A stretch of 64,000 nt of DNA, from the NCBI RefSeq assembly GCF_000027125.1, contig NC_017627.1; one strand, written 5' to 3'. Below are positions 32,746-50,431 of the stretch, one piece after another. The notes beneath the pieces are model-generated. The model was given only the letters and a program-made list of their open reading frames with translations. It made no database searches and was not told where the DNA came from. This DNA comes from Escherichia coli 042. Its GTDB lineage: Bacteria > Pseudomonadota > Gammaproteobacteria > Enterobacterales > Enterobacteriaceae. Both the position numbers and the translations under genes were made by a program. Position 1 is the stretch's first letter. Each line of letters opens with the position of its first letter.

Positions 32746-33432
32746 TTACTTAACACCATAAAATTCACGAATTATACTTAATAGCGAATCTATTTCTCCT
32801 TTATAGATACATGACACTCTGAATAAATCAAAGTGTTCAAAAAATTCTTTTATTTTCCGTTTAACTGGTTTAATTCGATCCTCAGATGCTCTGTCTGTAA
32901 TACCCAACTCTCTGGCAATTGTTGCGTGACCAACACCCAGCATATAAAAAGAGAAAACAACCAATGTCCCTGGAGAAAGATCATTCCATATCGTTAATTT
33001 ATCAGAAGTATTTGTATTACTTCCACTCTGATTTAACGCAAAAAATGGATAATCAGGAAACGGATTAATTTGCCATAAAACAACAGATTCGTCATTATAA
33101 AAAGAAACATTCTCCATCCTTATCTGATAGATTTCGCCATGAAAATTAAAACGACGACAAAATGCAGAGCCATGTCCAAGAGCCTGGCATTCCAGTTCAA
33201 GTGATGAAAGAAAAATTTCAACCTGCAGACGTATATAACTCTCTCCGGATAAGGGTTTATCTTCTCTGGAAAAGAGTTCAATAAAAGCCCCATTGGCATA
33301 AAGGATTTTCCGGTTTTTGTTACGGACACAAACCGGAACGGGAGAATTTCTGTAGATATTCTGAACGTTAAGGATGTATTTATTTACAGATTGACTGTTA
33401 AGTGGCCTTTCTCTACGATCCAGCGCACACAT
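32746..33432 (-). CDS. traJ: TraJ transcriptional activator of the tra operon
   Basis: Start at ATG 33432 (MCALDRRER...) preceded by GGAGG; the longer ORF to 33492 is probably leader. Confidence 0.85.
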
Positions 33433-33505
33433 AGGAACCTCCGTTAAGGATTCTATGGACAGTCGATGCAGGGAGGTCTGAACTCCCTGCATCGGCGATT
33501 TTCAG
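33427..33505 (+). ncRNA. finP: FinP-like antisense RNA (antisense to traJ leader, RBS and start)
   Basis: Plus strand carries the complement of the traJ RBS, then stem-loop gcagggag...ctccctgc and a U-rich tail; ends approximate. Confidence 0.5.
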
Positions 33506-33625
33506 TTTCAATTTTTAACGTGGCATTAACCACGTAATTAATATAACCTTTATGCGGTTAATTGTCATCAAATTGAACCAGATCAAAATCCTGTTATTTG
33601 AAGCAAATCAACTTTTAATTCTTTT

Positions 33626-34009
33626 TTATTCCTCATCATTTTCTGGAAAGAACCTCTCCATCTCAGATGACACCTTATCCCTGATATCTTCGACCATATT
33701 CGCATATTCAAACTTTGGATTCCCGGAAACATGAGGGCTTAGTGACTCAATACCTAAAATCTTAGCAACTGTTGACTGTGTTTTTACCGCACATTCAAGA
33801 AGTACCTTATTAAACTCAGCCTGATTGAACGCTGACTCTTTACGCTCCATCTGAGCCTCATATACACGAAGCCCTAATTCGAGAAGCATAGTGGATATGC
33901 TTGAGAAACTTACATCTGTACTTTTAGCTCCTTCTGCACGTCTTCTTTCCACAATTTTATTTATTTTATAGACAATTTCGTCACTGACATAAGCCTGCAC
34001 TTTCGCCAT
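33626..34009 (-). CDS. traM: TraM relaxosome accessory protein
   Basis: 127 aa, MAKVQAYVSDEIVYKINKIVERRRAEGAK... Confidence 0.95.
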   Translation of the reverse strand: MAKVQAYVSDEIVYKINKIVERRRAEGAKSTDVSFSSISTMLLELGLRVYEAQMERKESAFNQAEFNKVLLECAVKTQSTVAKILGIESLSPHVSGNPKFEYANMVEDIRDKVSSEMERFFPENDEE

Positions 34010-34430
34010 ATGTATACCTCTTTATTTTCTTATCGAATCAAATTTATTTCACATATAAAAAAATGACAATTCATCGATGAATCGAATCGTGACGCAAGTT
34101 ACGAAAATTACGATTCATGCAGCAAATCACATCACGAATTGAATCTAGAGTCAATTCGCTTTAACTCGTTGTTTTATTATTACTGATTCATCTATGAGTT
34201 GCGTTAAATTCATTGGTGAATCATATGCGATTCACCAATGAATCCTTTTTATAATGTAAAATAAATTAAAATACATTATTTAAAACATAAGTTAATGATT
34301 CAAATAGCAAATCAGCAAAAACTTGTTTTTGCGTGGGGTGTGGTGCTTTTGGTGGTGAGAACCACCAACCTGTTGAGCCTTTTTGTGGAGTGGGTTAAAT
34401 TATTTACGGATAAAGTCACCAGAGGTGGAA
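34010..34430 (+). promoter_or_regulatory. oriT: oriT (origin of transfer); nic site predicted between 34341 and 34342 on the plus strand
   Basis: F-type nic motif GTGGGGTGT/GGTGCTTTT at 34333-34350 between traM and orf169; AT-rich region 34020-34300. Confidence 0.85.
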
Positions 34431-34432
34431 AA

Positions 34433-34942
34433 ATGAAAAAATGGATGTTAGCAATCTGCCTGATGTTTATAAATGGGATCTGCGAAGCCGCCGATTGCTT
34501 TGATCTTGCAGGTCGGGATTACAAAATAGACCCGGATTTACTGAGAGCGATATCATGGAAAGAATCCCGTTACCGGGTTAATGCCATCGGTATTAATCCG
34601 GTAACGGGATATGGCAGCGGACTGATGCAGGTAGATTCCCAGCATTTTAACGAACTGGCCCGCTATGGAATTAAGCCGGAACATCTGACAACAGATCCCT
34701 GCATGAACATTTATACCGGTGCTTATTATCTGGCAATAGCCTTTAAAAAATGGGGCGTCTCCTGGGAGGCCGTTGGTGCATACAATGCCGGATTCAGGAA
34801 GACCGAACGCCAGAACCAGAGACGTCTTACCTACGCATCAGAGGTTTACCGGATTTATACCTGGATAAAGAGCAGTAAAGGCATCCGGGTTCCGACCACG
34901 AAGAAATCACTTTCCCAAATTAACAGTGTGCAGAACAATTAA
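34433..34942 (+). CDS. Orf169 / gene X lytic transglycosylase-like leading-region protein
   Basis: 169 aa from [19 protein letters not shown]; soluble lytic transglycosylase-like [10 protein letters not shown]...GLMQV. Confidence 0.9.
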
Positions 34943-35200
34943 TATTGTATACATTGTCAAATACCGGTTATGCCGCGACAGCGGCATGGAAGGCCACACA
35001 CAAAAATATCATATGAGTGATAATGCTGACTGGCCGAAGCCCCGCAAAGCGGGACCCCATCTTATATATATCCGGTAACTGCACAGCCTCCTGCCAGACC
35101 ATTTTTCGCGGGCACAATATTTACAGACTACCGAAAAGCCAGTTGATGAAATTGAGGCATATCAGACGACACAGCAATGCCGCAGGATGATAATATAAGT

Positions 35201-35238: not shown

Positions 35239-36060
35239 TCATGACTTCCACTCCCTGAACTGTTCGGCAATCATCCATAATGCTTTGTTGATTCGGATAT
35301 CACCGTCAATGCCTGTAATGGCTCTTGTTCTGGTATTTTTACCGGAGGCACTTCGCCCCGATAATCCACCTTTTATCATATTCTCCTGAACCCGCTGCCA
35401 AGTTGTCCAGAGATCGTTCTGTTTATCCTCCCAACGGCGGGGAGTAATTATTTGTTCTGGCGTCACTGGCGTTTTATTTTCATCTTCGTACCTAGCCATC
35501 AATGCAGCTCTGCCAAATAAATGTTGTTCGTCACTGTTAAGATGTATCTCTTTCATTGTCTCCATATTTTCAGTGACTTTATCAAAGACACCGAGCACTT
35601 CATACGCTCCCTCAATAACCTGCCCGACAATATCACCTTTATGTGGAACGCGGATTTCGCCAAAATTATTCCCACACACCAGGCCATTTGTGCAGACAAA
35701 ACGAAAAATTCCTGGGATCATCTGATAACTGGATGAACCATCATGTGAATTAAGCAGGATAATTTCAGGAACTTCTTTCCCGTTAATATGCCCTTCCCTG
35801 CGAAGACGTAACATATGTTTACTGTATTCGCGGCGTCCCAAATCACGAACCCGACTCTGACAGGCAAAGAACGGCTGGAAACCTTCATCACGTAACTTAT
35901 TGATGATATTGATGGTTGGGATATATGTATAACGCTCACTCCGGGATTCATGTTTATCACCAGAAAAGACAGATGGAACAAACTGCATTAATTCGTCATC
36001 CGTTAACGGGCGCTCACGGCGAATAGAATTATATCGACCAAAACGGGAAGCTAATCGCAT
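35239..36060 (-). CDS. Conserved leading-region protein (YubP-like, 273 aa)
   Basis: 273 aa ORF next to orf169; family assignment from memory of F leading-region gene order. Confidence 0.7.
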   Translation of the reverse strand: MRLASRFGRYNSIRRERPLTDDELMQFVPSVFSGDKHESRSERYTYIPTINIINKLRDEGFQPFFACQSRVRDLGRREYSKHMLRLRREGHINGKEVPEIILLNSHDGSSSYQMIPGIFRFVCTNGLVCGNNFGEIRVPHKGDIVGQVIEGAYEVLGVFDKVTENMETMKEIHLNSDEQHLFGRAALMARYEDENKTPVTPEQIITPRRWEDKQNDLWTTWQRVQENMIKGGLSGRSASGKNTRTRAITGIDGDIRINKALWMIAEQFREWKS

Positions 36061-36170
36061 AACAGTAACTCCTTTATGAAGGCATAAAATTAATAAAATT
36101 TTTTTCGCTTAATATCATCCCCCCTCGGTTATCGTTAACAAAAAGACAACAATTCCGAGGGGAAGGACCA

Positions 36171-36467
36171 TCAAATCAGGTCAGTTCGGGACTGACCAAC
36201 CTGCCGAGTGAAAAGCAGTAACAGCGCGATCAACTCATCAGCGTTTTTTCTGACAAGAGGAGTATGATTCTCCAGGCTATCCAGTAAGTCATGCAGCTCA
36301 TTATTGACCTGATGGAGCACCTTAAAGAGTGCACCAGAATCCCGGCAGCTCTGATATGCAAGATTTGCCTGAACAGCACGATTCTGCATGATCCCGATTT
36401 GTGCGATTGCGTCTTTCTGCTGATCGCCTGTTGGCTGATAAGTGGTGTTAAAAGAAAATGCGCTCAT
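36171..36467 (-). CDS. Hypothetical leading-region protein (98 aa)
   Basis: ORF immediately downstream of Frpo-like repeat A. Confidence 0.45.
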   Translation of the reverse strand: MSAFSFNTTYQPTGDQQKDAIAQIGIMQNRAVQANLAYQSCRDSGALFKVLHQVNNELHDLLDSLENHTPLVRKNADELIALLLLFTRQVGQSRTDLI

Positions 36468-36483
36468 AATTCCTCCTGTATCT

Positions 36484-36944
36484 GATGTTTTCAGCCCCCA
36501 TCATCTGTTGAGTTTCGGGAGCCGCGGTTTTGACGTTTTGCGGGGACCTGCCTTTTGTTCCCTCCGGTATTCACCATCACCTGTTTGAGAACCTTCGCCG
36601 CAAGGGGCATCACTGCCACGGCCTGACGCACCTGTCCTGGGCAGAACGCAAAATTTTTTACCGGGTTTTAGGTAAAAAATTTTGTGGTCTGTTCATTTAC
36701 CCTGGACAGTCAGTGCGGCAGGTTGTGGCTGTATCAGCCCCCGGCGACAGGGGCTTAAACAGGTGAATGGCACCGGACACAACAACGGGCAGGGACCCGC
36801 CGCAACGACGTGAAGCGCGGTTTGCGAAACGGCGTTGCGCCTTACATCCCGGCGGCCTTTTGCCGGGATGCCAGGAGCGCAGGCCACGGCGCGACAGAGG
36901 CGGCGCGACCGGAACGGTCGCTGCAAGCCCGGGGTTTCGCGTCA
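36484..36944. repeat. Frpo-like repeat A (putative single-stranded DNA promoter element)
   Basis: Near-identical to 42053-42506 and 45451-45900; internal palindromes such as aaaattttttaccgggttttaggtaaaaaatttt. Confidence 0.7.
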
Positions 36945-37316
36945 GGGATGGAAGCCCGCCAGGGGGACGCCCGGAAAAGACACTGCCAGGAGAACAACAA
37001 AACAGACAATAATCAGGGCAGCAGTAATCAGAGTCAGAACAGGAGGAAAAAGAGAATAATCAAAGGGAAGGTGATGTGATTTCTGACAGGTCATAAACAG
37101 AGAAGGCGGGGGAAAAGAACGGGCGCCGCAGGCGCGCGTTCTTCCCCGTTCCCGGAGGGAAACGGCCTTCCTGGCAGTCTGGTTGTTCATGCCCGCACAA
37201 TGCCAGCAAGGAGAAAGGGGCCACCGGCGAACCAGCAGCCCCTTTATAAAGGCGCTTCAGTGCAGTCAGACCAGCATCATCCCTGAAAAGGCGGGCCTGC
37301 GCCCGCCTCCAGGTTG

Positions 37317-37478
37317 CTACTTACCGCCGGATTCGTAAGCCATTGTTGCCGTAACTTCCCTGTATCCGTCCTTCAGCCGGACTTCGCACAGACGATTCCG
37401 GGTCAGGAATGTGAATATCAACAACGTGCAGCACACGATTAATACGCACCAGATAAGGGCGTTTCCCGGTAGTTTCAT
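37317..37478 (-). CDS. hok: Hok/Gef-family membrane toxin (flmA/hok-like)
   Basis: 53 aa [53 protein letters not shown] with AGGAGGAG SD; not in the supplied ORF track because it is nested in the mok-like frame. Confidence 0.85.
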
Positions 37479-37536
37479 GGTTTACTCCTCCTTGCAATTT
37501 GCACGGTAAGAGGCCATACTGACGTGGACTAGACAT
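37321..37536 (-). CDS. mok: Mok-like overlapping reading frame
   Basis: 71-aa ORF overlapping hok in another frame. Confidence 0.45.
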
Positions 37537-37560
37537 GCAGAGGCCTCGTGGGTTAATGAA
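37485..37560 (+). ncRNA. sok: Sok-like antisense RNA (approximate)
   Basis: Plus-strand promoter-like ttgcaa-17 bp-catact opposite the mok start; ends not determined. Confidence 0.3.
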
Positions 37561-37685
37561 AAATTAACTACGGGGCTTTTGTCCTTCTGCCACACGACAC
37601 GGTAACAAACCACCTTCACGTCATGAGGCAGAAAGCCTCAAGCGCCGGGCACATCATAGCCCATATACCTGCGCACTGACCACAC

Positions 37686-38033
37686 TCACTTTCCCTGAAA
37701 ATAATCCGGTCGTTCAGCCAGTTCACGGGCTATCAGTTCATCCGCAAACAGTGGTGCATGCCTGTTGATACGTTTCTCCAGATTCCGCCGTCGTACCGCA
37801 GCCTTACGTTCTTCGCTCCAGCGGCGCACCGGGCGGTCAGAAATAAAATCCAGACAGACCGCATACCCTGCTCCGGCAACCCAGCGTGACATAACGGATG
37901 CCGGTGCAGGCTGCCCCGCCTCCACCACTTCTGAAACCAGTTCATGCTCGCCAGGACAGGGATAAGGCAGTTTCCAGCGCAGTGAGTAACGCCACTTCAC
38001 GCCGCCTCCCGGAGTTTGTTCGGCACCATCCAT
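37686..38033 (-). CDS. Hypothetical ORF overlapping the 3-prime end of psiA
   Basis: 115-aa GC-rich ORF; may be non-coding hok mRNA leader. Confidence 0.25.
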   Translation of the reverse strand: MDGAEQTPGGGVKWRYSLRWKLPYPCPGEHELVSEVVEAGQPAPASVMSRWVAGAGYAVCLDFISDRPVRRWSEERKAAVRRRNLEKRINRHAPLFADELIARELAERPDYFQGK

Positions 38034-38716
38034 CGCTCCATCTCACGGACGGCATGACCGGCCTCCCTTGCCGCCATACCAGCCTCTGCGATGACCTGCC
38101 AGAACGGCATATCCTGCCACTGCCAGCGTTCCATTCCGGCCAGTGACGGGAAACGCTCGCCCCACTGCCAGAACAGGGTTTCCAGGTCATGCTCTGCCAC
38201 CCGGTCACTCCAGCGTGCATGCCAGCTTCCAACTGTTTCCGGCGAATGGAATGCCAGTTCGACTTCAGCCTGAGCGACCAGCGCCTGGTACGCACGGGCT
38301 TTCTGCTCTGCCTCCCGTGCCTGCTGGCGGCTGTACTTCTGCATGACCAGCGCGGATTTATGGCGACTGCGCTCCCTGACGCGGAACCGCACCGACGGAA
38401 ACAACCGCTCTGCTGCATCACCGGGAAGGGGAAGGAGGCAGACCTCGCCCTGTGTTTCAATCAGCACATCGACGGCATACAGCCACTGAAGACGGCTGCC
38501 GTGCAGTTCTTCTGCGGTCAGGGATGGCATGAAAAATCGCAGGTCAGACAGCGAAATCCTGCGGCTTCCGTTCAGACAGCGGAAAAACGCTCCCGCATAC
38601 GGATATTCCGCCAGCGTGTTTCCCTGATGGCGGCGTTTTTCCGTCTCCGCCACCGCCCGCCATGCGGCCTGTTGCTCTGCGCTGAGGGGAACCAGTGTCT
38701 GTGATCGTGCGCTCAT
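37997..38716 (-). CDS. psiA: PsiA
   Basis: 239 aa [32 protein letters not shown]..., matches F PsiA from memory. Confidence 0.95.
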
Positions 38717-39147
38717 GCCTGACCTCCTTCCGCCATCAGGATATGAATGATGTCGTTAACGCTGTACCCCTGCGCATCCAGTGACGCCGCCAGTGCCAGT
38801 GAATGGCTGACAGCTTCCGGTGCAAACCGCCGCTGCACCTGAACCACCGCAAACGGCTCACCACCGGCATTCACCAGAACCAGCACCCAGACCTGAGAGA
38901 CATCGCCCGGTGAACATAACGCCAGGTGAAAACATTCGTGGGCAGGCGTGAAACGGACCTGGACGGGGAAAAATCCACCAAACTCGCTGCCGTACTCGCC
39001 GTTCATCGTCCAGTTGTCCGGCGCATCCAGTTCCCGCATCACGGCGTGTGTCAGCTCACGACGTTCATCACTTCCGGCAGCCCGGATATCTTCATATTCC
39101 TGTGCGCTCATGGTCTGTAATACATTCAGGGTCAGTTCAGTTTTCAT
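38713..39147 (-). CDS. psiB: PsiB anti-SOS (RecA-inhibiting) protein
   Basis: 144 aa [40 protein letters not shown]... Confidence 0.95.
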
Positions 39148-39201
39148 CACAGTATCTCCCTTGCTGCCGCCCCGTCTCCGGCGGGGCGGTGTGGTTGTTC
39201 A

Positions 39202-41160
39202 TCAGGCGGCATCAGCCAGGTTATCGGTGCGTTCAGTGGCATCTGTCTGTGGATGTGGTGCACACATCCAGCCTGGAACCCAGCGGTTGTCTTTCATATT
39301 GTGCTCTGCATGTTCAGCCGCATCACCTTTCTTCATCTTCTCCGCGTCCCGTGCGGCACCGGACAGCCCTGCCTCATTCAGGGCTGCGATAATCTGCGGC
39401 TTTTTCAGGTGTCCGAAGAAGTTTGCTTTTGTCGGCTGCCACCAGTCACGCATGTGAAAGCCGATGGCGCTTTCCAGCGAGTCAAGCGGACTGCGTGACG
39501 TGTGACCACACTCGCGGGTCTGAACGCCGTGGATGCTGCACGCGGTACAGAAGCTGAGCAGGGATAACAGCACCTCCTGGCTGAGTGACAGGAACGTCGT
39601 CATATCCCGTTCCCATCCTTCCGGCAGCAGGGCAGCAAAACGAGAGTGTTCTGCCATCAGCGCCATGAATGCGGCACCTTCCTTCCCCGACGGTGCATCG
39701 CTGGTCAGCGCATAATGCTCACATTCCAGGCGAATTCTGGCGGGACTACTATGCGCTTTGCTGCCAAACACATTCAGGCAGAGCGTCCATGCCAGCAGTG
39801 TCAGGGATTTGTCCGGTTGCTGCATCAGTGCCGCCTGGACTGCCAGCGTGCGTTCGGAAGACATTTTCGTCAGCAGTGGCAGACTGATTTCCTCCACTGA
39901 CGCTTTTTCCTGCACCTGTTCCGTGCGGTCAGCGTCGTCAGCCGCATCATCCTCACTGCGTAACTGCACACCACGCTGGACACATACGTTTCCATAACGC
40001 CAGGACACCACCACTCCACCTCCGGCACGCATCTCCGGCGTCCACGCTCTGACCTTCGCCATGCAGCGCATCAGCTTCATTTCTGCTTCCAGCAGGTCAG
40101 ATTCCTCACACTGATTTTCCAGCGCGTCGTAACGCGTCATCAGTTCGTTCAGACGTTCTTCTTCCGCCTCCGTCAGCACCGCTTCCGGCTCCGGCAGACA
40201 GCGGTATGTTCCGGCATCCTCACGGCACTCACCGACAGGCTCCATGCGTCCGGCGCACCATCCCCAGCCTTCGGCTTCCCGAAGGAACTCTGCAACAGCC
40301 TGGAGTTTTTCCAGCAGGGCGGCATCGAGCGCAACACAGTCCACATAGCCACCCTCGTCGTCGCTGAACAAATCAGTGCGCAGTTCATCTGGCGAGAAGG
40401 CATCAGCCCCCACAAAGCGGAATTTACTGTTCCCCGCCACCGCCACTTCACTTTCGGTCACCAGACGACGAATGGTCTGTACTTCCGGTTTACCGCCCCA
40501 TCCCGACTGGCAGGCGGCTTCAAACACCTGCACCTGACGCGCGGTGTCGTTCTCCAGCGCCAGCGCCTGACAGTGCTCTGTGGTGATGCGGTCTTCTGCC
40601 AGCGCATCGAGGATGACAGGCGCAAGGTCTGCCAGTTTCAGCATTCGCTGAACGTGGCGGGGCGAATAGCCCAGCAAATCACCGATTTGTGCAGGCGTTT
40701 TGCCTTCCTGCGCCATCGCACGGAATCCGGCAATCTGTTCGGCAGGGTGCATATCCCGACGATGACCGTTTTCAGTCATTGATGCAGCCGTCGCCAGCTC
40801 CTGCGGAATAACCTTCACGCGTACAGGCCAGTCAGCCGGAATGATGCCACGCTCTGCCAGCATGTTGAGTGCTGCCAGTCGGCGACCACCTGCGGCGACA
40901 CCGTAACGGTCACCAGGCAGGGTATGCACGACCAGATTCTGCAACAGGCCAACGCCCTTAATGGACTCCGCCAGTTCGCTGACGGACTCTGCGGAATACG
41001 GCACAGTGCGCACATTCAGCGGTGATTTAATCAGTGAAGCCAGCGGCACACTCACTTCCTCCGTCTGCGCCAGCAGGGCAGACAGGACTGTTTCCTGCGT
41101 TTTTGCATATTTACGGCTTGCTTTGCGGGTGGTTTCTGGTTCACACTTCGTTACAGGCAT
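39202..41160 (-). CDS. ParB-like nuclease-domain leading-region protein (652 aa)
   Basis: N-terminal ParB/Srx-like region LQNLVVHTLPGDRYGVAAGGRRLAA; conserved position between ssb and psiB. Confidence 0.85.
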   Translation of the reverse strand: MPVTKCEPETTRKASRKYAKTQETVLSALLAQTEEVSVPLASLIKSPLNVRTVPYSAESVSELAESIKGVGLLQNLVVHTLPGDRYGVAAGGRRLAALNMLAERGIIPADWPVRVKVIPQELATAASMTENGHRRDMHPAEQIAGFRAMAQEGKTPAQIGDLLGYSPRHVQRMLKLADLAPVILDALAEDRITTEHCQALALENDTARQVQVFEAACQSGWGGKPEVQTIRRLVTESEVAVAGNSKFRFVGADAFSPDELRTDLFSDDEGGYVDCVALDAALLEKLQAVAEFLREAEGWGWCAGRMEPVGECREDAGTYRCLPEPEAVLTEAEEERLNELMTRYDALENQCEESDLLEAEMKLMRCMAKVRAWTPEMRAGGGVVVSWRYGNVCVQRGVQLRSEDDAADDADRTEQVQEKASVEEISLPLLTKMSSERTLAVQAALMQQPDKSLTLLAWTLCLNVFGSKAHSSPARIRLECEHYALTSDAPSGKEGAAFMALMAEHSRFAALLPEGWERDMTTFLSLSQEVLLSLLSFCTACSIHGVQTRECGHTSRSPLDSLESAIGFHMRDWWQPTKANFFGHLKKPQIIAALNEAGLSGAARDAEKMKKGDAAEHAEHNMKDNRWVPGWMCAPHPQTDATERTDNLADAA

Positions 41161-41218
41161 AATCATCCCCTTATAATTGCTTATGTCCTGCCGGACGTTC
41201 GCGCGTCCGGCACCTCTC

Positions 41219-41452
41219 TTACTTAAGAATGCCGAAATTCCGGATGACATGGTTCATCCAGTACCCGGCACCGTCCTCAAAATTCCAGGTACGCCAGACC
41301 AGGCCACTGTTATTGCGGACAACCAGGCGAAAATGCGTTCCCTGATCATCCTCGATAAAGACATTCCGGTACTGTGCGGCAACGGCTTCAGCCTGTTCGC
41401 GGGTAAAGGAGCCGTCAGGCAGCCCCTGAAATATTCTGAAATATTCGCTCAT
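41219..41452 (-). CDS. Small conserved leading-region protein (YubL-like)
   Basis: 77 aa from [10 protein letters not shown]..., between ssb and the ParB-like gene. Confidence 0.5.
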
Positions 41453-41507
41453 CCTCATCTCTCCGGTGATGCCCCGCACTGGACGGGGCGGTTGTCACTG
41501 TCTTAGT

Positions 41508-42035
41508 TCAGAACGGAATGTCGTCATCGAAGTCATACGCGGGTTCAGACGGCTGCTGAGGCTCGGGCTGCGCGGCCTTACGTCCACGGCCTTTCGTTTT
41601 CGCGCCACCTTTTTTCAGTTCCGGCTGTGATTCCGGCTGAGGCTGACCGCTGAACTGTTGCGCCTCTTCCGGCTGAGTCTGAGTACCTGCGGCACGTCCC
41701 AGCATCTGCATGGTGCCCGTGGTCTTAACAAGAATTTCGGTGACGTAACGGGTGATACCGTTATCCTCCCAGCTACGGGTGCGAAGCTGACCTTCGATGT
41801 AGACCTGCGCGCCCTTGCGCAGATACTCACCAGCCACTTCCGCGAGCTTGCCGAACAGCACCACGCGATGCCATTCTGTCTGCTCCCGCATCTCCCCCGT
41901 CTGTTTGTCACGCCAGCTTTCTGACGTGGCCACCTGCAGGTTTGCCACTGCGCCCCCGTTGGGGATGTAACGGATTTCCGGATCTTTTCCCAGACGACCG
42001 ACAAGAATGACCTTGTTAATGCCACGAACTGCCAT
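41508..42035 (-). CDS. ssb: Plasmid single-stranded DNA-binding protein
   Basis: 175 aa from [23 protein letters not shown]..., acidic tail DFDDDIPF. Confidence 0.95.
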
Positions 42036-42052
42036 GATGTGTCTCCTTCTGT

Positions 42053-42690
42053 TGATGTTTTCAGCCCCCATCATCTGTTGAGTTTCGGGAGCCGCGGTTT
42101 TGACGTTTTGCGGGGACCTGCCTTTTGTTCCCTCCGGTATTCACCATCACCTGTTTGAGAACCTTCGCCGCAAGGGGCATCACTGCCACGGCCTGACGCA
42201 CCTGTCCTGGGCAGAACGCAAAATTTTTTACCGGGTTTTGGGTAAAAAATTTTGTGGGCTGTTCATTTACCCTGGACAGTCAGTGCGGCAGGTTGTGGCT
42301 GTATCAGCCCCCGGCGACAGGGGCTTAAACAGGTGAATGGCACCGGACAGAACAACGGGCAGGGACCCGCCGCAACGACGTGAAGCGCGGTTTGCGAAAC
42401 GGCGTTGCGCCTTACATCCTGGCGGCCTTTTGCCGGGATGCCGGGAGCGCAGGCCACGGCGCGACAGAGGCGGCGCGACCGGAACGGTCGCTGCAAGCCC
42501 GGGGTTTTCACGCATCGGACCGTAGCGACAGCCCGAAACCGCGCCAGCGGGTTCGGCGGAGACTGGCGGGTGCGCCAGCAGCTGCCTGTCGGAGTCGGGC
42601 CTGACGACCGGATGCCGCCAGGCAGCCGGGAGCCGAAGGTGCGCCCGGCAGACAGGACAACACTGCAGTAGTCAGAATCAGAGCGGCAGG
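42053..42690. repeat. Frpo-like repeat B, immediately upstream of ssb
   Basis: Near-identical to repeat A over about 450 bp and to repeat C over about 600 bp. Confidence 0.7.
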
Positions 42691-42700
42691 AAAAAGAAGA

Positions 42701-42784
<84 letters not shown>

Positions 42785-42961
42785 ACAACAACATCATCAG
42801 TAACAGACAAATGACAGGTCTGAAAAGACAGAAGCCCCCATCAGAACGTCCGCGTAATGAAAGGGGCGGCGCGTGAGCGCGGCCCCTTTCAGCGCCACCG
42901 GCGCGCGGTCTTTTCCCGGCGCGGACAGACGGGCATTTATCCTCCCGCCAGCCCTGTGTCA

Positions 42962-43525
42962 TCAGGCACGCAAACGAATAATCATCGTCGGGACATCGGT
43001 ATAAGCAAACGTGCCGCGCGGCAGCTCCTCGCGGATGTCAGAAAACGGTAACAGCTTCTCCTGCTGGCGCGGCCCGTTCAGACAGACGGCAACCAGCACG
43101 CCCCCCGGACGCAACAGGGAAAAAGCCCGCAGGATATGCCGGATATCCTGCCCGTGGATGAACGGCGGATTCATAATGATCCGGCTGTAATACTGCACCG
43201 GCTGCCATTCCATGAAGTCGCCACACTGTACCCTGACACCGTTAAAATTTTCCCGCAGATACCGGACCAGCCCGCTGTTAATCTCCACCGCATCACACAT
43301 GGCCTCCGGCGCGGTATCCCGAATCGCCCGCAGTATGGCCCCGGTGCCGGCAGAGGGTTCCAGAATGTGATCACGGTTGCTGATTTCCGCCAGCGTCACC
43401 AGGCGATCACAGACCGGGGCAGGACTCACAAAAAGCTGAGATTCAGCCCGGATTTCAGCAACCGGCGCGGCGTTATCCAGCCTTGCGCGCATCAGCCGGA
43501 TACGTTCTCTTAACTGACTGTGCAT
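42962..43525 (-). CDS. Small orphan SAM-dependent N6-adenine DNA methyltransferase-like protein
   Basis: 187 aa; motif I-like EPSAGTGAI followed by NPPF (motif IV); no adjacent restriction gene. Confidence 0.75.
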   Translation of the reverse strand: MHSQLRERIRLMRARLDNAAPVAEIRAESQLFVSPAPVCDRLVTLAEISNRDHILEPSAGTGAILRAIRDTAPEAMCDAVEINSGLVRYLRENFNGVRVQCGDFMEWQPVQYYSRIIMNPPFIHGQDIRHILRAFSLLRPGGVLVAVCLNGPRQQEKLLPFSDIREELPRGTFAYTDVPTMIIRLRA

Positions 43526-43571
43526 GTCATTATCTCCGTCATCCCCCGGGGATTTCCCGGGGGGATATACC

Positions 43572-44933
43572 TTATTTCTGTGGGATTTCCGTGATTTTCA
43601 TGTCGGTAATATACACATTCACCAGGCGGAAATTATTGTCCATTGTGCGGCGGTAGCGGTATGCCCCGTGGTCTTCTGTCTCTGCCACACTGCGCACGGC
43701 CTTACAGTCCCGGGGCAGGGCGGCCCACTGCGCCTTTGTCATTTCCCGGAAACCTTCCCCCGGATAGTTGACTACCGGCGGACGCTTCGCGGCCTGACTG
43801 GCGACGGCAGCCTCTTCTGCCGATGGTGCTTTGTAGTCCGTGATGCGATCGGGCGTCACTTTCATCGTGCCGCTGTACCCGAGAAAACTGTAATTTGGCG
43901 TTGTGACTGAACTCACCGCCCCGTTGCTTTTGTTCACGCGGATGATGGTCAGCCACTCGCCCCGGCTGAAAACCTGTCCGCCCGGCTCAAAATCCTGTGT
44001 CCGGGTAACCACGCCGCCGCTTTCGTCCAGCATGGCACGCTCATAGATCAGGCGGTTCTGATAGTGGTTAACCCAGCGTTGCTGATGCTGAATCTGCCGT
44101 TCATGACAGCGGATCGCAATTTCGCGGGCCTGCTCCGTGGTGATGATGTCATCATCCAGGGCCGACCATAACGATCGACTTCCTTCATACTGGCTTTTTT
44201 CTGCCGGGCGCGGATACCTGTCCAGCGGGAAACAGGCGCTGATATGGTCATGACTGCTGATGAGTTTTGCCATATTCAGATCCAGCGATTCAGCCCGCCA
44301 CATCGTCAGATATTTCTGCGACTGTGCGATGGTCTTTTCCGCCTTGCGCAAATCAGCTTCGATTTTTTTGATACGACGCCAGCGAACGTCCGGACGTTCT
44401 TTATACTTCGCGTGAAGCAGTGCCGACCGCGCCCGCTCTTCCCAGTATTCCGCACGTTCAAAGAGCATCACAGCACGTTTCATACCGTTTTCAATACGCT
44501 GTGCATCACGACGGGCGCGGCGTTCGCTGTGATGCCCCACAAGAATGGGCTGACCGGGCGGGATCATCGCGGCCAGTCTTTCCACTTCATCAAGTGCCTG
44601 TGCGGATTCACTGGCCCGCTTTCCGCTGTATCCGGTAAACCGCTCCGCCCGTGCTTCCTGACGTTCAGCGAGCGTGCTGTCTTCATCCTCAATCTCTCCG
44701 GCAAGTGAGAGGAGCACGTCTTCCCGGCCCGGTGTCCAGGCTGGCGCGACAAACAGCGCCTGTTTGGGTGCCCAGCGAAAACCGGCATCATGCACTTTTT
44801 TATACGTCTCCGGGTCAAGACGTGACGCGGCATACAGGCGCAGTTTGTTGTCATCCGGTGAGTAGGTCGCGCGGTACATCTGCACAGGGCTGGCGGCTTC
44901 CGGGGCGGTCATGGTGATTGCTGCTAATGTCAT
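43572..44933 (-). CDS. Conserved leading-region hypothetical protein (453 aa)
   Basis: Long ORF with charged coiled-coil-like middle region; no catalytic motif recognised. Confidence 0.55.
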   Translation of the reverse strand: MTLAAITMTAPEAASPVQMYRATYSPDDNKLRLYAASRLDPETYKKVHDAGFRWAPKQALFVAPAWTPGREDVLLSLAGEIEDEDSTLAERQEARAERFTGYSGKRASESAQALDEVERLAAMIPPGQPILVGHHSERRARRDAQRIENGMKRAVMLFERAEYWEERARSALLHAKYKERPDVRWRRIKKIEADLRKAEKTIAQSQKYLTMWRAESLDLNMAKLISSHDHISACFPLDRYPRPAEKSQYEGSRSLWSALDDDIITTEQAREIAIRCHERQIQHQQRWVNHYQNRLIYERAMLDESGGVVTRTQDFEPGGQVFSRGEWLTIIRVNKSNGAVSSVTTPNYSFLGYSGTMKVTPDRITDYKAPSAEEAAVASQAAKRPPVVNYPGEGFREMTKAQWAALPRDCKAVRSVAETEDHGAYRYRRTMDNNFRLVNVYITDMKITEIPQK

Positions 44934-44984
44934 AAAATGTTCTCCTTCCGTCTGTTGCCGCCCCTCGCGGGGCGGCTCACCTCA

Positions 44985-45215
44985 TCAGTTAAAAGCGCGT
45001 TTCAGTTCGAGTGTGCGGAGCACCTGCCCGAAAGCCGTATTTTTCATGGCGGGGATGTGTACACCACGTCCCCGGTGAAAACTCCGGGCAATGTGTCGCC
45101 CGAAGGCTTTCAGCACGGGGTCAATTTCCGGCGCGGGGATGTCTTCGCGTCTGAAACGGGGATGACGGCGGGGCTTTACAGCCGCTGCGGAAGGTGAAAC
45201 AATACTTACTGTCAT
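44985..45215 (-). CDS. Small hypothetical protein (76 aa)
   Basis: First ORF downstream of Frpo-like repeat C. Confidence 0.3.
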   Translation of the reverse strand: MTVSIVSPSAAAVKPRRHPRFRREDIPAPEIDPVLKAFGRHIARSFHRGRGVHIPAMKNTAFGQVLRTLELKRAFN

Positions 45216-45450
45216 AAATGCATCCTTATGACTGTTGACTGGAGCCGCAAAAACTGTTCGTGCAGTCTCTGCAGCATGGATTAAGCAGGTTCCTGACCTG
45301 CTTTTTTCATATCTGCATCTGACGCTTTCCGGTGTTTTCCTCCTTCTGTTCCTGCGTTCTCATTACCTGCCAGCCGGATGACTGACAGAACACATAAATG
45401 CGTATTGCCGGAGCCTGAAATAAATCCTGATTTTTAAAGAACATCACCCG

Positions 45451-46060
45451 TTGAGTTTCGGGAGCCGCGGTTTTGACGTTTCGCGGGAACCTGCTGCTGT
45501 ATTCCCTGTGGTATGAACTTCACCCGTTTGAGAACCTTCGCCGCAAGGGGCATCACTGCCACGGCCTGACGCACCTGTCCTGGGCAGAACGCAAAATTTT
45601 TTACCGGGTTTTGGGTAAAAATTTTTGTGGGTTGTTCATTTACCCTGGACAGTCAGTGCGGCAGGTTGTGGCTGTATCAGCCCCCGGCGACAGGGACTCA
45701 TACGGGTGTGTGGCACCCGGCAGGCAATGAGCAGGGGCCCGCTGCAACGACGAAGAGCGCGTGCGCGAAACGGCGTTGCGCCTTACATTCCGGCGGCCTT
45801 TTGCCGGGATGCCGGGAGCGCAGGCCACGGCGCGACAGAGGCGGCGCGACCGGAACGGTCGCTGCAAGCCGGGGGTTTTCACGCATCGGACCGTAGCGAC
45901 AGCCCGAAACCGCGCCAGCGGGTTCGGCGGAGACTGGCGGGTGCGCCAGCAGCTGCCTGTCGGAGTCGGGCCTGACGACCGGATGCCGCCAGGCAGCCGG
46001 GAGCCGAAGGTGCGTCCGGCAGACAGAACAACACTGCAGTAGTCAGAATCAGAGCAGCAG
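45451..46060. repeat. Frpo-like repeat C
   Basis: Shares about 600 bp with repeat B including the tail ...cactgcagtagtcagaatcagag. Confidence 0.7.
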
Positions 46061-46247
46061 ATAAAGGAACAACAACATCAGGAACAGTTCCATAACATAA
46101 GAAAGAAACACTCCTGAGTCAGACACATCACAGACGGGAAGGGTAACGGGCGACGCGCCAGCGTGGCCCGCTTCCCTTCCGGCAGGCGTCAGCCTGCCAG
46201 GGGTTTTCGCGCGGGCTGACAGGCGGCCTCCACCGCCTGCCCCTGTA

Positions 46248-46904: not shown

Positions 46905-47330
46905 TCAGTCCAGCGCCGCATAAATCGCGTTACATTCGGGGTGAAATTCGATGTGGCTCCACAACTGCGCATCGCGCATCCTGTACAGGTGAGTCAGCCC
47001 TGCGCTACCGCTGTCGTGGTACAGCCACAACTGGCGGTTAATCACAAGGGAGGTCAGGATGATGCCTGCGGCATCAGCACTCACGGTACGGTCAAACCAG
47101 TTTTCACCGTTAACCAGATGAAAACGGTCGCCATCCGGCATCATGTAACCGCCACCGTCCGGCAGGCGGATGAAGTGCCAGAATCCGCCTTCATATTCCG
47201 GCATCATTTTTTTCGCCAGCGCGTACACAGATGCCTCGGCATACAGAAAATCCAGGCCAAACAGGTAAGGCAGAAAGGAGAGACGGTCGCACTCTTCAAC
47301 ATTCAGAGTGACAGGTTTCGCATATTGCAT
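46905..47330 (-). CDS. klcA: KlcA/ArdB-family anti-restriction protein
   Basis: 141 aa [25 protein letters not shown]...[21 protein letters not shown] resembling KlcA/ArdB. Confidence 0.8.
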
Positions 47331-47366
47331 GATGTTTTCCTCCGTTGTTCACATATTCCGCGACAC

Positions 47367-47600
47367 CGGGCGGTGCCGTGCCTCCATCTTTGCCGGGCCT
47401 GCAGGGTTGCAAGGGCGCAAGGGAAGCCGCAGCCTGACGCACACGGCTGGCGGGAGTTGGAGGGTGAGACCGCGAAATCTGAGCGGGTGAACGACCGGAA
47501 AATCACGGCAGACGGGAAGGAGGGACCGGGTGACCGCAGCGGTTCACCTTACCTTGCAACCCGCCCGCAGAAGCCCGGCTACGATGGAGGCACGGCACAG
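47367..47600. promoter_or_regulatory. Long imperfect inverted repeat (about 230-nt hairpin) upstream of klcA; candidate ssDNA promoter distinct from the Frpo-like repeats
   Basis: Arms 47367-47415 and 47548-47600 are reverse complements (ccgtgcctccatc / gatggaggcacgg; gggttgcaagg / ccttgcaaccc). Confidence 0.45.
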
Positions 47601-47745
47601 CCCGCACACGACGCTGAGGCCACATAACTGAAAACCCACAAGGCCATGCCCCGCATGGCCGGGTAAAGCGGAGCCTGCGGCGACATCCTTTTGCTCTTTC
47701 CGGGGACCGGCTGGAAAAGGCGGAGATTTTTCCCCGCCAGCGTCA

Positions 47746-49230: not shown

Positions 49231-49914
49231 TTACGCAGCCTCCGGTTCAAACCAGTTATCATTCGCGGCCCCCTGCTGCATGGCCCGTTGCACGGCGGCC
49301 AGTCGTTGCTGTCCGGCACGGTGATACTGTTCAAGCAGCTCGATACCGATATACCGGCGTCCGGACTGAAGGGCGGCGACGCAGGTTGAGCCGCTGCCTG
49401 CAAACGGGTCCAGCACAATCGCGTTCGGGTGTGTGAAGCTCTCAATCAGCGGTTGCAGGCTGGTAACGGGCTTTTCAGTCGGGTGATGACGATTGCCTGA
49501 ATATTTCCAGCCCAGCACGTCGGGCAATGGCTTCTGAGGCAGCGCCGGACGTCCTTTTGCCAGGATGTAGGCGCATTCGTGGCGATAGCCCACATATGCG
49601 GCCTTCGATGTGTAGGTTTTGGTAAACACCAGGTGGCCAACCACGCTGAATCCCGCATTTTTCCAGGCGGCCATAAAGCGATCGACGCGGTTCCAGCCAT
49701 AGAAGCTCACCATTAACGCGTCTTTTTTGAGTACGCGGTACATTTCATTACAGGCTGGTTGCAGCCATTCATCGGTTTTATCGCCGGCGATGGTGCGCCC
49801 GGAACGGTCACGGAAACCGACGAGATACGGCGGGTCGGTGAGGATGAAATCGACAGCATTGCCCGGAAACGTGGCCATAACACGCACGCAGTCACCCAGG
49901 ATAAAACGGGACAT
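49231..49914 (-). CDS. Orphan DNA adenine methyltransferase-like protein (beta-class amino-MTase motif order)
   Basis: 227 aa; DPPY motif (ILTDPPYLVGF) N-terminal and FxGxG-type DPFAGSGST C-terminal; no cognate endonuclease nearby. Confidence 0.85.
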   Translation of the reverse strand: MSRFILGDCVRVMATFPGNAVDFILTDPPYLVGFRDRSGRTIAGDKTDEWLQPACNEMYRVLKKDALMVSFYGWNRVDRFMAAWKNAGFSVVGHLVFTKTYTSKAAYVGYRHECAYILAKGRPALPQKPLPDVLGWKYSGNRHHPTEKPVTSLQPLIESFTHPNAIVLDPFAGSGSTCVAALQSGRRYIGIELLEQYHRAGQQRLAAVQRAMQQGAANDNWFEPEAA

Positions 49915-50249
49915 AACAGCACTCCTTCTCTTACAGAGGGCACCGGGAGGGCACCCCTGTGGTGCCCGTTCCCCGCTGCCTGTGGGCTGTTCACCGCGTC
50001 CGGTAACGGGTCAGGCCGACCGTGGAATACCGCAGCCGTCGTCTTTTTGACGGCAAGGCTATGCCGCGAAAGCGGCTTGAAGGGCGTTCATCAGAAAAGG
50101 GCTCCCGGCTGGCGTACACTGTCACCAACGCCAGCCGGGAGCGGTAAAAGCGCCCGTCCCGTGCCCGGCCGGACGCGGGACACTGACCACAGGCAGCGTT
50201 CCTGCCGCGCCGCGTCAGCCGGCGCAGTAAAAAGAGGAGCCCGGCGACA

Positions 50250-50431
50250 TCTTTTGTCACCCGCCAAACAAAACCCAAAAACAACCCACACCCAACCCAA
50301 TAAAACACCAAAACAAGACAAACAATCATTGATTGATGGTTAAAATGGGGTAAACTTGACAAATAAACCCACTTAAAACCCAAAACATACCCAAATACAC
50401 ACCAAAAAAAACACCATAAGGAGTTTTATAA
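50250..50431 (+). promoter_or_regulatory. parC: parC-like centromere/promoter region upstream of parM
   Basis: A/C-rich repeated motifs (aaaccc, acccaa, aaaaca) upstream of the parM RBS. Confidence 0.55.

Follow-up and report, generated by a model that had tools for sequence, protein, structure and literature searches.

Frpo, a hairpin promoter on single-stranded DNA of plasmid F that also yields primers, goes back to Masai and Arai (1997) as summarized in PMC7690428 and PMC9849209, and three ssi copies on plasmid ColIb-P9 are credited in PMC12672017 to Bates et al. (1999) and Nasim et al. (2004). F Frpo1 and Frpo2 were shown to drive the first two leading-region gene blocks of F, and live transconjugants from which either one has been deleted no longer produce YgeA, Ssb and YfjA early (Couturier et al., PMC9849209). 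Samuel et al. (PMC11541004) identified 6,006 conjugative elements with a total of 13,089 Frpo homologues, and Wen et al. (PMC12672017) mapped start sites in transconjugants in vivo, defined classes 1, 2 and 3 of single-strand promoters (ssp) and reported early single-strand promoter activity for ssi1–3 of IncI1 plasmids. The names ssp1a, ssp1b, ssp2 and ssp3 are used in a 2026 preprint that describes ssp2 as a replication roadblock stalling complementary-strand synthesis (10.64898/2026.01.09.698686), and a leading-region block gained or lost between Frpo repeats was reported by Venturini et al. (PMC3817090). It is established in the literature that single-strand promoters allow SOS inhibitors, the protein that binds single-stranded DNA (SSB), antirestriction proteins and methylases to be made within minutes of entry, and early expression of this kind plays a central part in how resistance plasmids spread. 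Here we analyse three repeats in a 64,000-nt stretch of Escherichia coli 042 DNA (contig NC_017627.1, assembly GCF_000027125.1; hereafter the window), which belongs to an F-like conjugative plasmid and matches thousands of F-like plasmids from Escherichia, Klebsiella, Salmonella and Shigella. We assign them, with a probability of about 0.9, to the class 1 single-strand promoters (Frpo/ssi/ssp1), working by means of the folded transferred strand. An original prediction made from the letters alone had called them Frpo-like; its observation is confirmed and its interpretation supported, and the system, which it recognised correctly, is one already known.

Three direct repeats of the Frpo family

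Repeat boundaries and mutual identities were taken from pairwise local alignment.

36471–36937, plus strand: copy A, probable class 1 single-strand promoter, F Frpo1 (ssp1a) by position
42044–42717, plus strand: copy B, probable class 1 single-strand promoter, F Frpo2 (ssp1b) by position
45442–46088, plus strand: copy C, probable third class 1 copy, lacking a counterpart in F
A against B: 98.1% identity over 467 nt (36471–36937 and 42044–42507)
A against C: 90.0% identity over 440 nt (36499–36937 and 45442–45878)
B against C: 91.7% identity over 650 nt (42069–42717 and 45442–46088)

All three lie in direct orientation, and no fourth copy was found in the window. A repeat finder returned the same three-copy family (300 nt, at 36483, 42053 and 45426) with an extra segment common to the second and third copies; the distal ~200 nt are indeed common to B and C and missing from A, and copy C has diverged from A and B in the lower stem. 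The repeats are richer in G+C than the window (59–61% vs 53%). The coordinates first proposed hold to within a few tens of bases, the B/C similarity extending ~30 nt beyond the ends given; the claim of near-identity is right for A and B and too strong for C.

Reference Frpo and ssi sequences (supplementary file 4 of PMC11541004) were compared with the window by BLAST.

F ssiD (the original Frpo, D90178): 87.3% identity to copy A, 87.6% to B and 77.6% to C, over 340–355 nt
F Frpo2 fragment: 96.5% identity to copy A, 98.6% to B and 91.4% to C

The Frpo2 fragment is the one set ahead of an anti-CRISPR gene in the experiments of PMC11541004. Every match of either reference to the three copies is in plus orientation, that is, in the sense of the transferred strand, and the resulting ranges (77.6–87.6% for ssiD, 91.4–98.6% for Frpo2) bear out the likeness to published F Frpo. 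The complete record of plasmid F (NC_002483) carries two copies, ahead of ygeA/ygeB and of ssb, and both were aligned with the window copies. Copies A and B thus share with F Frpo1 (ssiD, ssp1a) and Frpo2 (ssp1b) one sequence family at 87–99% identity, the strand, the hairpin, the places ahead of ygeA/ygeB and ssb-psiB-psiA and the spacing to the first start codon; unlike F, the window plasmid has a third copy together with a block containing a DUF3560 gene and a methyltransferase gene, both of which F lacks.

The resemblance to ssi1–3 of ColIb-P9 and other IncI1 plasmids is one of layout and apex. There too, three dispersed hairpins of ~330 nt in the leading region head co-oriented establishment genes, and an apex core is common to both systems (GTCC.GGGG, an A/T tract, then CCCTGGAC). 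In contrast to the F elements, ssi2 and ssi3 match the window repeats at 78–80% over only ~80–95 nt around the apex, the lower stem is unrelated, and the two systems differ in part of the gene blocks that they drive (IncI1 has ardA). Folded single-stranded DNA likewise starts RNA polymerase at the ssoA-type origins of rolling-circle plasmids and at the hairpin promoters of phage N4; the sso elements serve for priming only, the N4 promoters are short hairpins read by the phage polymerase, and neither is akin to the repeats in sequence or context.

The core element was found in at least 5,000 plasmid records (at least 19,277 matching places) and the block below copy C in at least 4,852, similar frequencies which indicate that three copies are the usual state of F-like plasmids. 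No Rfam family covers the repeats. A scan of 298 Gb of contigs with the 15-mer GCGAAACGGCGTTGC gave 120 loci, mostly chance matches because a 15-mer is too short for that amount of sequence, and four true homologues. Separately, leading-region hairpins of enterobacterial type, from both class 1 and class 2, turned up at 68–91% identity on contigs labelled Streptomyces morookaense DSM 40503; most likely that assembly is contaminated by an enterobacterial plasmid.

Next to copy B on its distal side is a tandem array (42699–42784) made up of 14.3 hexamers, with GAGCAG as consensus and CAGTAG and CAGGAG as variants. Open reading frames in the distal parts of the repeats and in this array translate as low-complexity strings (poly-Leu, Pro-Ala, Thr-Ala), on which ground they were rejected as genes; those called hypothetical proteins in related records, several of them inside the repeats, are probably spurious.

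Transferred strand, fold and gene layout

The strand that enters the recipient was fixed by the following features.

34328–34349, plus strand: oriT nic region with the F-type TraI site, TTTGCGTGGGGTGT followed directly by GGTGCTTT (exact pattern match)
33626–34009, minus strand: traM, with other tra genes below it, on the far side of nic from the leading region
33426–33535: traJ 5′ untranslated region with FinP (Rfam match)
34295–34942, plus strand: SLT/orf169 gene, adjoining oriT

We take TTTGCGTGGGGTGTGGTGCTTT, read on the plus strand at 34328–34349, to be the F TraI recognition and nick sequence, and presumably the nick falls between 34341 and 34342, as in the F nic sequence. In the best-matching record the minus strand below 34 kb carries traM, traY, traA and the tra genes that follow, and the leading region is above. 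Because the nic sequence is on the plus strand and the tra genes are on its other side, the plus strand, as had been proposed, is the transferred strand: transfer into the recipient begins with its 5′ end at ~34342 and proceeds through the leading region by increasing coordinate, the repeats lying 2.1–11.7 kb from nic. The annotated leading genes between 35.2 and 50.2 kb are all on the minus strand and therefore have the plus strand as their template. The statement that this is true of all leading genes fails for SLT/orf169 alone, which shares the transferred strand's own sense and for which the incoming single strand could therefore not serve as template.

The nic sequence itself lies inside the 5′ end of the longest SLT/orf169 open reading frame as annotated in related records. 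Past that gene, 34937–35125 (plus strand) is 91% identical to F ssiE (D90180), a single-strand initiation site that is not an Frpo, and this stretch would be the first of such signals to enter the recipient.

Folded as single-stranded DNA, the plus strand of copy A has an energy of −145 kcal/mol, where shuffled versions average −87 (z = −11.6). In each copy the main structure is an imperfect stem-loop of ~325 nt, accompanied by smaller distal hairpins.

36504–36829, plus strand: main hairpin of copy A, with apex loop 36663–36670 and an A/T-rich apex stem
42074–42399, plus strand: main hairpin of copy B, folding like A (−140 kcal/mol)
About 45450–45771, plus strand: main hairpin of copy C, folding like A (−125 kcal/mol)

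A 300-nt sliding fold across 33.5–56 kb gave the plus strand 5–14 kcal/mol more stability than the minus strand at all three copies. Furthermore, a consensus structure built from the window copies and homologues from F, Serratia and a metagenome has 99 pairs, 11 of them with compensatory double changes. When the alignment was enlarged by homologues from Citrobacter and Klebsiella and one further homologue (67–72% identity; eight diverged homologues), 71 consensus pairs were kept, with 506 Watson-Crick, 34 G.T and 6 A.C cells. G.T pairs form only on the strand shown, and A.C positions pair only on its complement, so the excess of G.T over A.C is an argument for selection on folding of the transferred strand. 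The palindromes noticed at the outset thus resolve into one long hairpin per copy, with smaller distal ones, whose predicted plus-strand structure is supported by covariation. Conservation is about twofold higher in the 5′ arm than in the 3′ arm (10.4 vs 20.4 in summed column entropy). A structured leader RNA was considered as the cause of this conservation and rejected, the leader folding no better than shuffled sequences (z = +0.7 to +1.1).

Each repeat heads a block of minus-strand genes, assigned from open reading frames and the annotation of matching plasmids and of F.

35239–36467, minus strand: block 1, below copy A
36171–36467, minus strand: 98-aa open reading frame, ygeA/yubO-like, with ATG at 36467 (block 1)
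35239–36060, minus strand: 273-aa DUF932 gene, ygeB/yubP-like (block 1)
37317–42035, minus strand: block 2, below copy B, with ssb, a DUF905 gene, a ParB-like gene, psiB, psiA and hok/sok
41508–42035, minus strand: ssb, 366 bits to NF010292, with ATG at 42035 (block 2)
39202–41250, minus strand: ParB-like gene (block 2)
38713–39150, minus strand: psiB (block 2)
37997–38716, minus strand: psiA (block 2)
37476–37647: Sok RNA (Rfam match; block 2)
42678–45215, minus strand: block 3, below copy C, missing from F
44985–45215, minus strand: 76-aa open reading frame, with ATG at 45215 (block 3)
43572–44933, minus strand: 453-aa DUF3560 gene (block 3)
42962–43525, minus strand: class I SAM methyltransferase, with weak family matches (block 3)
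42678–42962, minus strand: short low-complexity open reading frame (block 3)
45210–45306, plus strand: AS-pc01 antisense RNA, first seen in pHK01 (Rfam match)

Copy A ends 16–20 nt from the AGGAGG ribosome-binding site and the ATG at 36467, and the distance between copy B and the ssb start at 42035 is just as short; no conventional sigma-70-like promoter was found on the minus strand ahead of any of the three blocks. The original prediction, which placed each repeat immediately upstream of its block, is accurate for these two copies and not for copy C, which lies ~210 nt above the ATG of the 76-aa open reading frame; it was right to put a methyltransferase after the 453-aa gene in the third block. 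The gap below copy C is occupied by AS-pc01, which is antisense to the start of the 76-aa open reading frame and has its own promoter-like site (TTTACA-17-AACAAT, 45175–45203) and an intrinsic terminator (45283–45303 plus a T run). This RNA may keep block 3 silent in the plasmid's double-stranded state.

Promoter-like elements and competing roles

Within the fold, promoter-like elements centre on a conserved internal loop, which in copy A sets CATCACT of the 5′ arm (36608–36614) opposite TGTATCAG of the 3′ arm.

36730–36737, plus strand: TGTATCAG, 3′ arm of copy A, candidate pre-melted −10-like region, a poor match to TATAAT
36703–36708 (A), 42273–42278 (B) and 45646–45651 (C), plus strand: TGGACA, 3′ arm, candidate −35 for loop-to-base transcription
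36585–36590 (A), 42155–42160 (B) and 45528–45533 (C), plus strand: TTGAGA, 5′ arm, −35-like and pointing to the apex

Both hexamers are in duplex. TGGACA is near-invariant in the eight diverged homologues, where it lies 17–18 nt from the internal loop, the spacing in window-type copies being 21 nt including a 3-nt bulge; TTGAGA is invariant in eight of eight sequences, 17–18 nt from the same loop. A polymerase placed by TGGACA would run from apex to base and on into the genes, and one placed by TTGAGA toward the apex. None of the internal-loop hexamers is a good match to TATAAT. The earlier expectation of a stable hairpin with promoter-like −35 and −10 boxes in the folded strand is thus borne out for the hairpin and only loosely for the boxes: −35-like hexamers lie 17–18 nt from the loop, with no strict sigma-70 pair.

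Three indirect points favour TGGACA and the internal loop as −35 and −10 of a start directed from loop to base. An A+T-rich UP element upstream of the −35 is described in PMC11541004, and the A/T apex stem would fit it. Furthermore, the Frpo2 fragment of that study stops ~14 nt past TGTATCAG on the transferred strand, so that the pairing partner of TTGAGA is not in the fragment. Finally, the class 2 hairpin of the window (described below) has a clear TTGCAA ... TACGAT on its 3′ arm.

Two other candidates were tried and set aside. TTGAGA-17-CATACT, top of the position-weight scan of the transferred strand with a score of 10.1, is confined to the old ssiD entry D90178: as listed in a Nature 2024 supplement, that entry has CATACT at a place where CATCACT stands in the complete F record and in all other copies, and this one-base difference makes a much better −10 match in that entry alone. 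It is probably an old sequencing error. A conserved 8-nt bulge, TTCATTTA, was rejected as a general −10 since homologues from Serratia and Klebsiella lack it.

The two hexamers also admit a more elaborate reading, quite improbable in our judgement, by which one pre-melted bubble would give two opposed starts, a base-directed mRNA and an apex-directed short primer RNA ending at the loop. If true, the published transcription and priming functions would be split between two start sites of one hairpin.

Under the assignment to class 1, the repeats would act as follows. On conjugation the plus strand would enter the recipient 5′-first from the nick at ~34341, and each repeat, on arrival, would fold on itself into its ~325-nt imperfect hairpin. 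The stem would mimic a double-stranded promoter, with a duplex −35-like hexamer and, in the place of the −10, an internal loop that is always unpaired. Host sigma-70 RNA polymerase would bind the hairpin and transcribe the incoming strand toward lower coordinates, producing one minus-sense mRNA per block: the ygeA/ygeB-like genes from A, ssb to psiB, psiA and hok from B, and the 76-aa open reading frame, the DUF3560 gene and the methyltransferase gene from C. The same transcripts could prime complementary-strand synthesis; once the complement was made, the hairpin would be lost and the promoters would fall silent, so that establishment and anti-defence proteins would be made in a short burst. 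Polymerase recognition, single-strand-only activity, priming and shut-off are attributed to the window by analogy with the published experiments on F and IncI1, and copy C would presumably work like A and B.

Several observations weigh against this account. The minus strand of copy A folds well too (−131 kcal/mol, z = −10.6), so folding energy alone does not identify the active strand; strong folds on both strands are expected of a long imperfect palindrome. Even under a relaxed sigma-70 consensus the stem yields no hexamer pair, the window copies score poorly by position weights (3.4–6.2 at best), and because TGGACA and TTGAGA on opposite arms fit the same loop, either could set the start site and its direction inside the hairpin. 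Copy C, finally, is the most diverged, with ~210 nt and an antisense RNA gene between it and its first gene, and we found no direct experiment on it in the literature.

Among alternatives, the one that survives best is that the repeats are mainly single-strand initiation sites making short RNA primers for the complementary strand, with gene expression secondary or driven from elsewhere. F ssiD, to which the window copies are 78–88% identical, was first isolated as an initiation site; its RNA persists as an RNA–DNA hybrid used by DNA polymerase III in vitro, according to reviews (PMC7690428), and transcription-dependent early conversion near ssp1 sites in vivo is reported in the 2026 preprint (10.64898/2026.01.09.698686). 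The invariant TTGAGA, pointing to the apex, would moreover yield a short transcript. Priming and mRNA synthesis are nevertheless compatible with each other. Deletion of Frpo1 or Frpo2 abolishes early production of downstream proteins, and deletion of Frpo2 has no effect on transfer frequency (PMC9849209). The ends of copies A and B, 16–20 nt from a ribosome-binding site and start codon, are also hard to explain for a pure priming site. A primarily priming role is therefore possible and, in our view, doubtful.

It has also to be asked whether the repeats are chiefly substrates of homologous recombination that shuffle leading-region cassettes, with promoter activity incidental to their repetition. 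The block between copies B and C is exactly what F lacks, and F Frpo2 (NC_002483, 8090–8660) is a mosaic, with a B-like 5′ arm and apex, a C-like part of the 3′ arm, then A/B-like sequence and a distal end of the copy A type; as an alignment pattern this fits recombination or gene conversion among copies, with loss of the DUF3560–methyltransferase block in F. Some IncI1 plasmids have a 9.7-kb leading block between Frpo repeats and others lack it, a hybrid repeat being left behind (PMC3817090), and Couturier et al. regard Frpo1 and Frpo2 as potential recombination substrates (PMC9849209). Such exchange accounts for variation between plasmids but not for a conserved hairpin, compensatory changes and a strand-specific G.T excess, and it leaves the demonstrated promoter function unexplained. 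Recombination is better taken as a consequence of the repeats than as an alternative function, and as their chief role we consider it unlikely.

That the repeats are conventional double-stranded promoters, operators or terminators of the established plasmid, with palindromes as protein-binding sites or terminators, is very improbable: one weak terminator-like minus-strand site lies within each of copies A (36801–36788) and B (42371–42358), and psiB and ssb have some expression in established cells, but neither strand of the repeat, scanned as linear DNA under a strict sigma-70 consensus, gave a site, compensatory changes and transferred-strand wobbles in a 325-nt hairpin are not what a protein-binding site would be expected to show, and such elements are described as inactive as double strands in PMC12672017, which cites Masai and Arai (1997) and Nasim et al. 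(2004) for this.

Further hairpins and neighbouring features

The single-strand promoters of this leading region appear to extend beyond class 1.

47360–47690, plus strand: class 2 (ssp2) homologue, upstream of an antirestriction gene (46905–47330, minus strand)
49905–50255, plus strand: class 3 (ssp3) homologue, upstream of a DNA methylase gene (49231–49914, minus strand; 497 bits to PRK13699)

The first of these hairpins has a sliding-fold energy of −84 kcal/mol (z = −4.9); by BLAST it is 88.7% identical to the F region ahead of the antirestriction gene there, and a published candidate for what is now class 2 matches it at 79%; with its TTGCAA ... TACGAT it has a clearer promoter than class 1. 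The ssp2 primers of the 2026 preprint gave no match to this plasmid. The second reaches −98.7 kcal/mol in a 300-nt window (z = −8.1) and is 96% identical to the F region ahead of its DNA methylase, the class 3 (ssp3) of the literature. Like class 2 (ssp2, "Frpo3") and class 3 of F and pESBL, both are transferred-strand hairpins ahead of leading genes; unlike the class 1 copies, neither has sequence similarity to the three window repeats. Since the hairpins at ~47.4 and ~50.0 kb head further blocks, the leading region has five hairpin-headed blocks rather than three, and the original prediction, correct that each repeat heads a block, was incomplete in having the three repeats alone partition the region. 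For annotation, three class 1 hairpins, one class 2 and one class 3 would mark five early operons in the leading region.

At the far end of the window, two CopA-like RNA matches lie on opposite strands (58913–59002, plus; 63839–63928, minus), with two ALIL pseudoknot matches between them (60998–61114 and 62237–62353, both minus). This layout, from 58913 to 63928, suggests that the replication-control region was duplicated in inverted orientation around insertion sequences.

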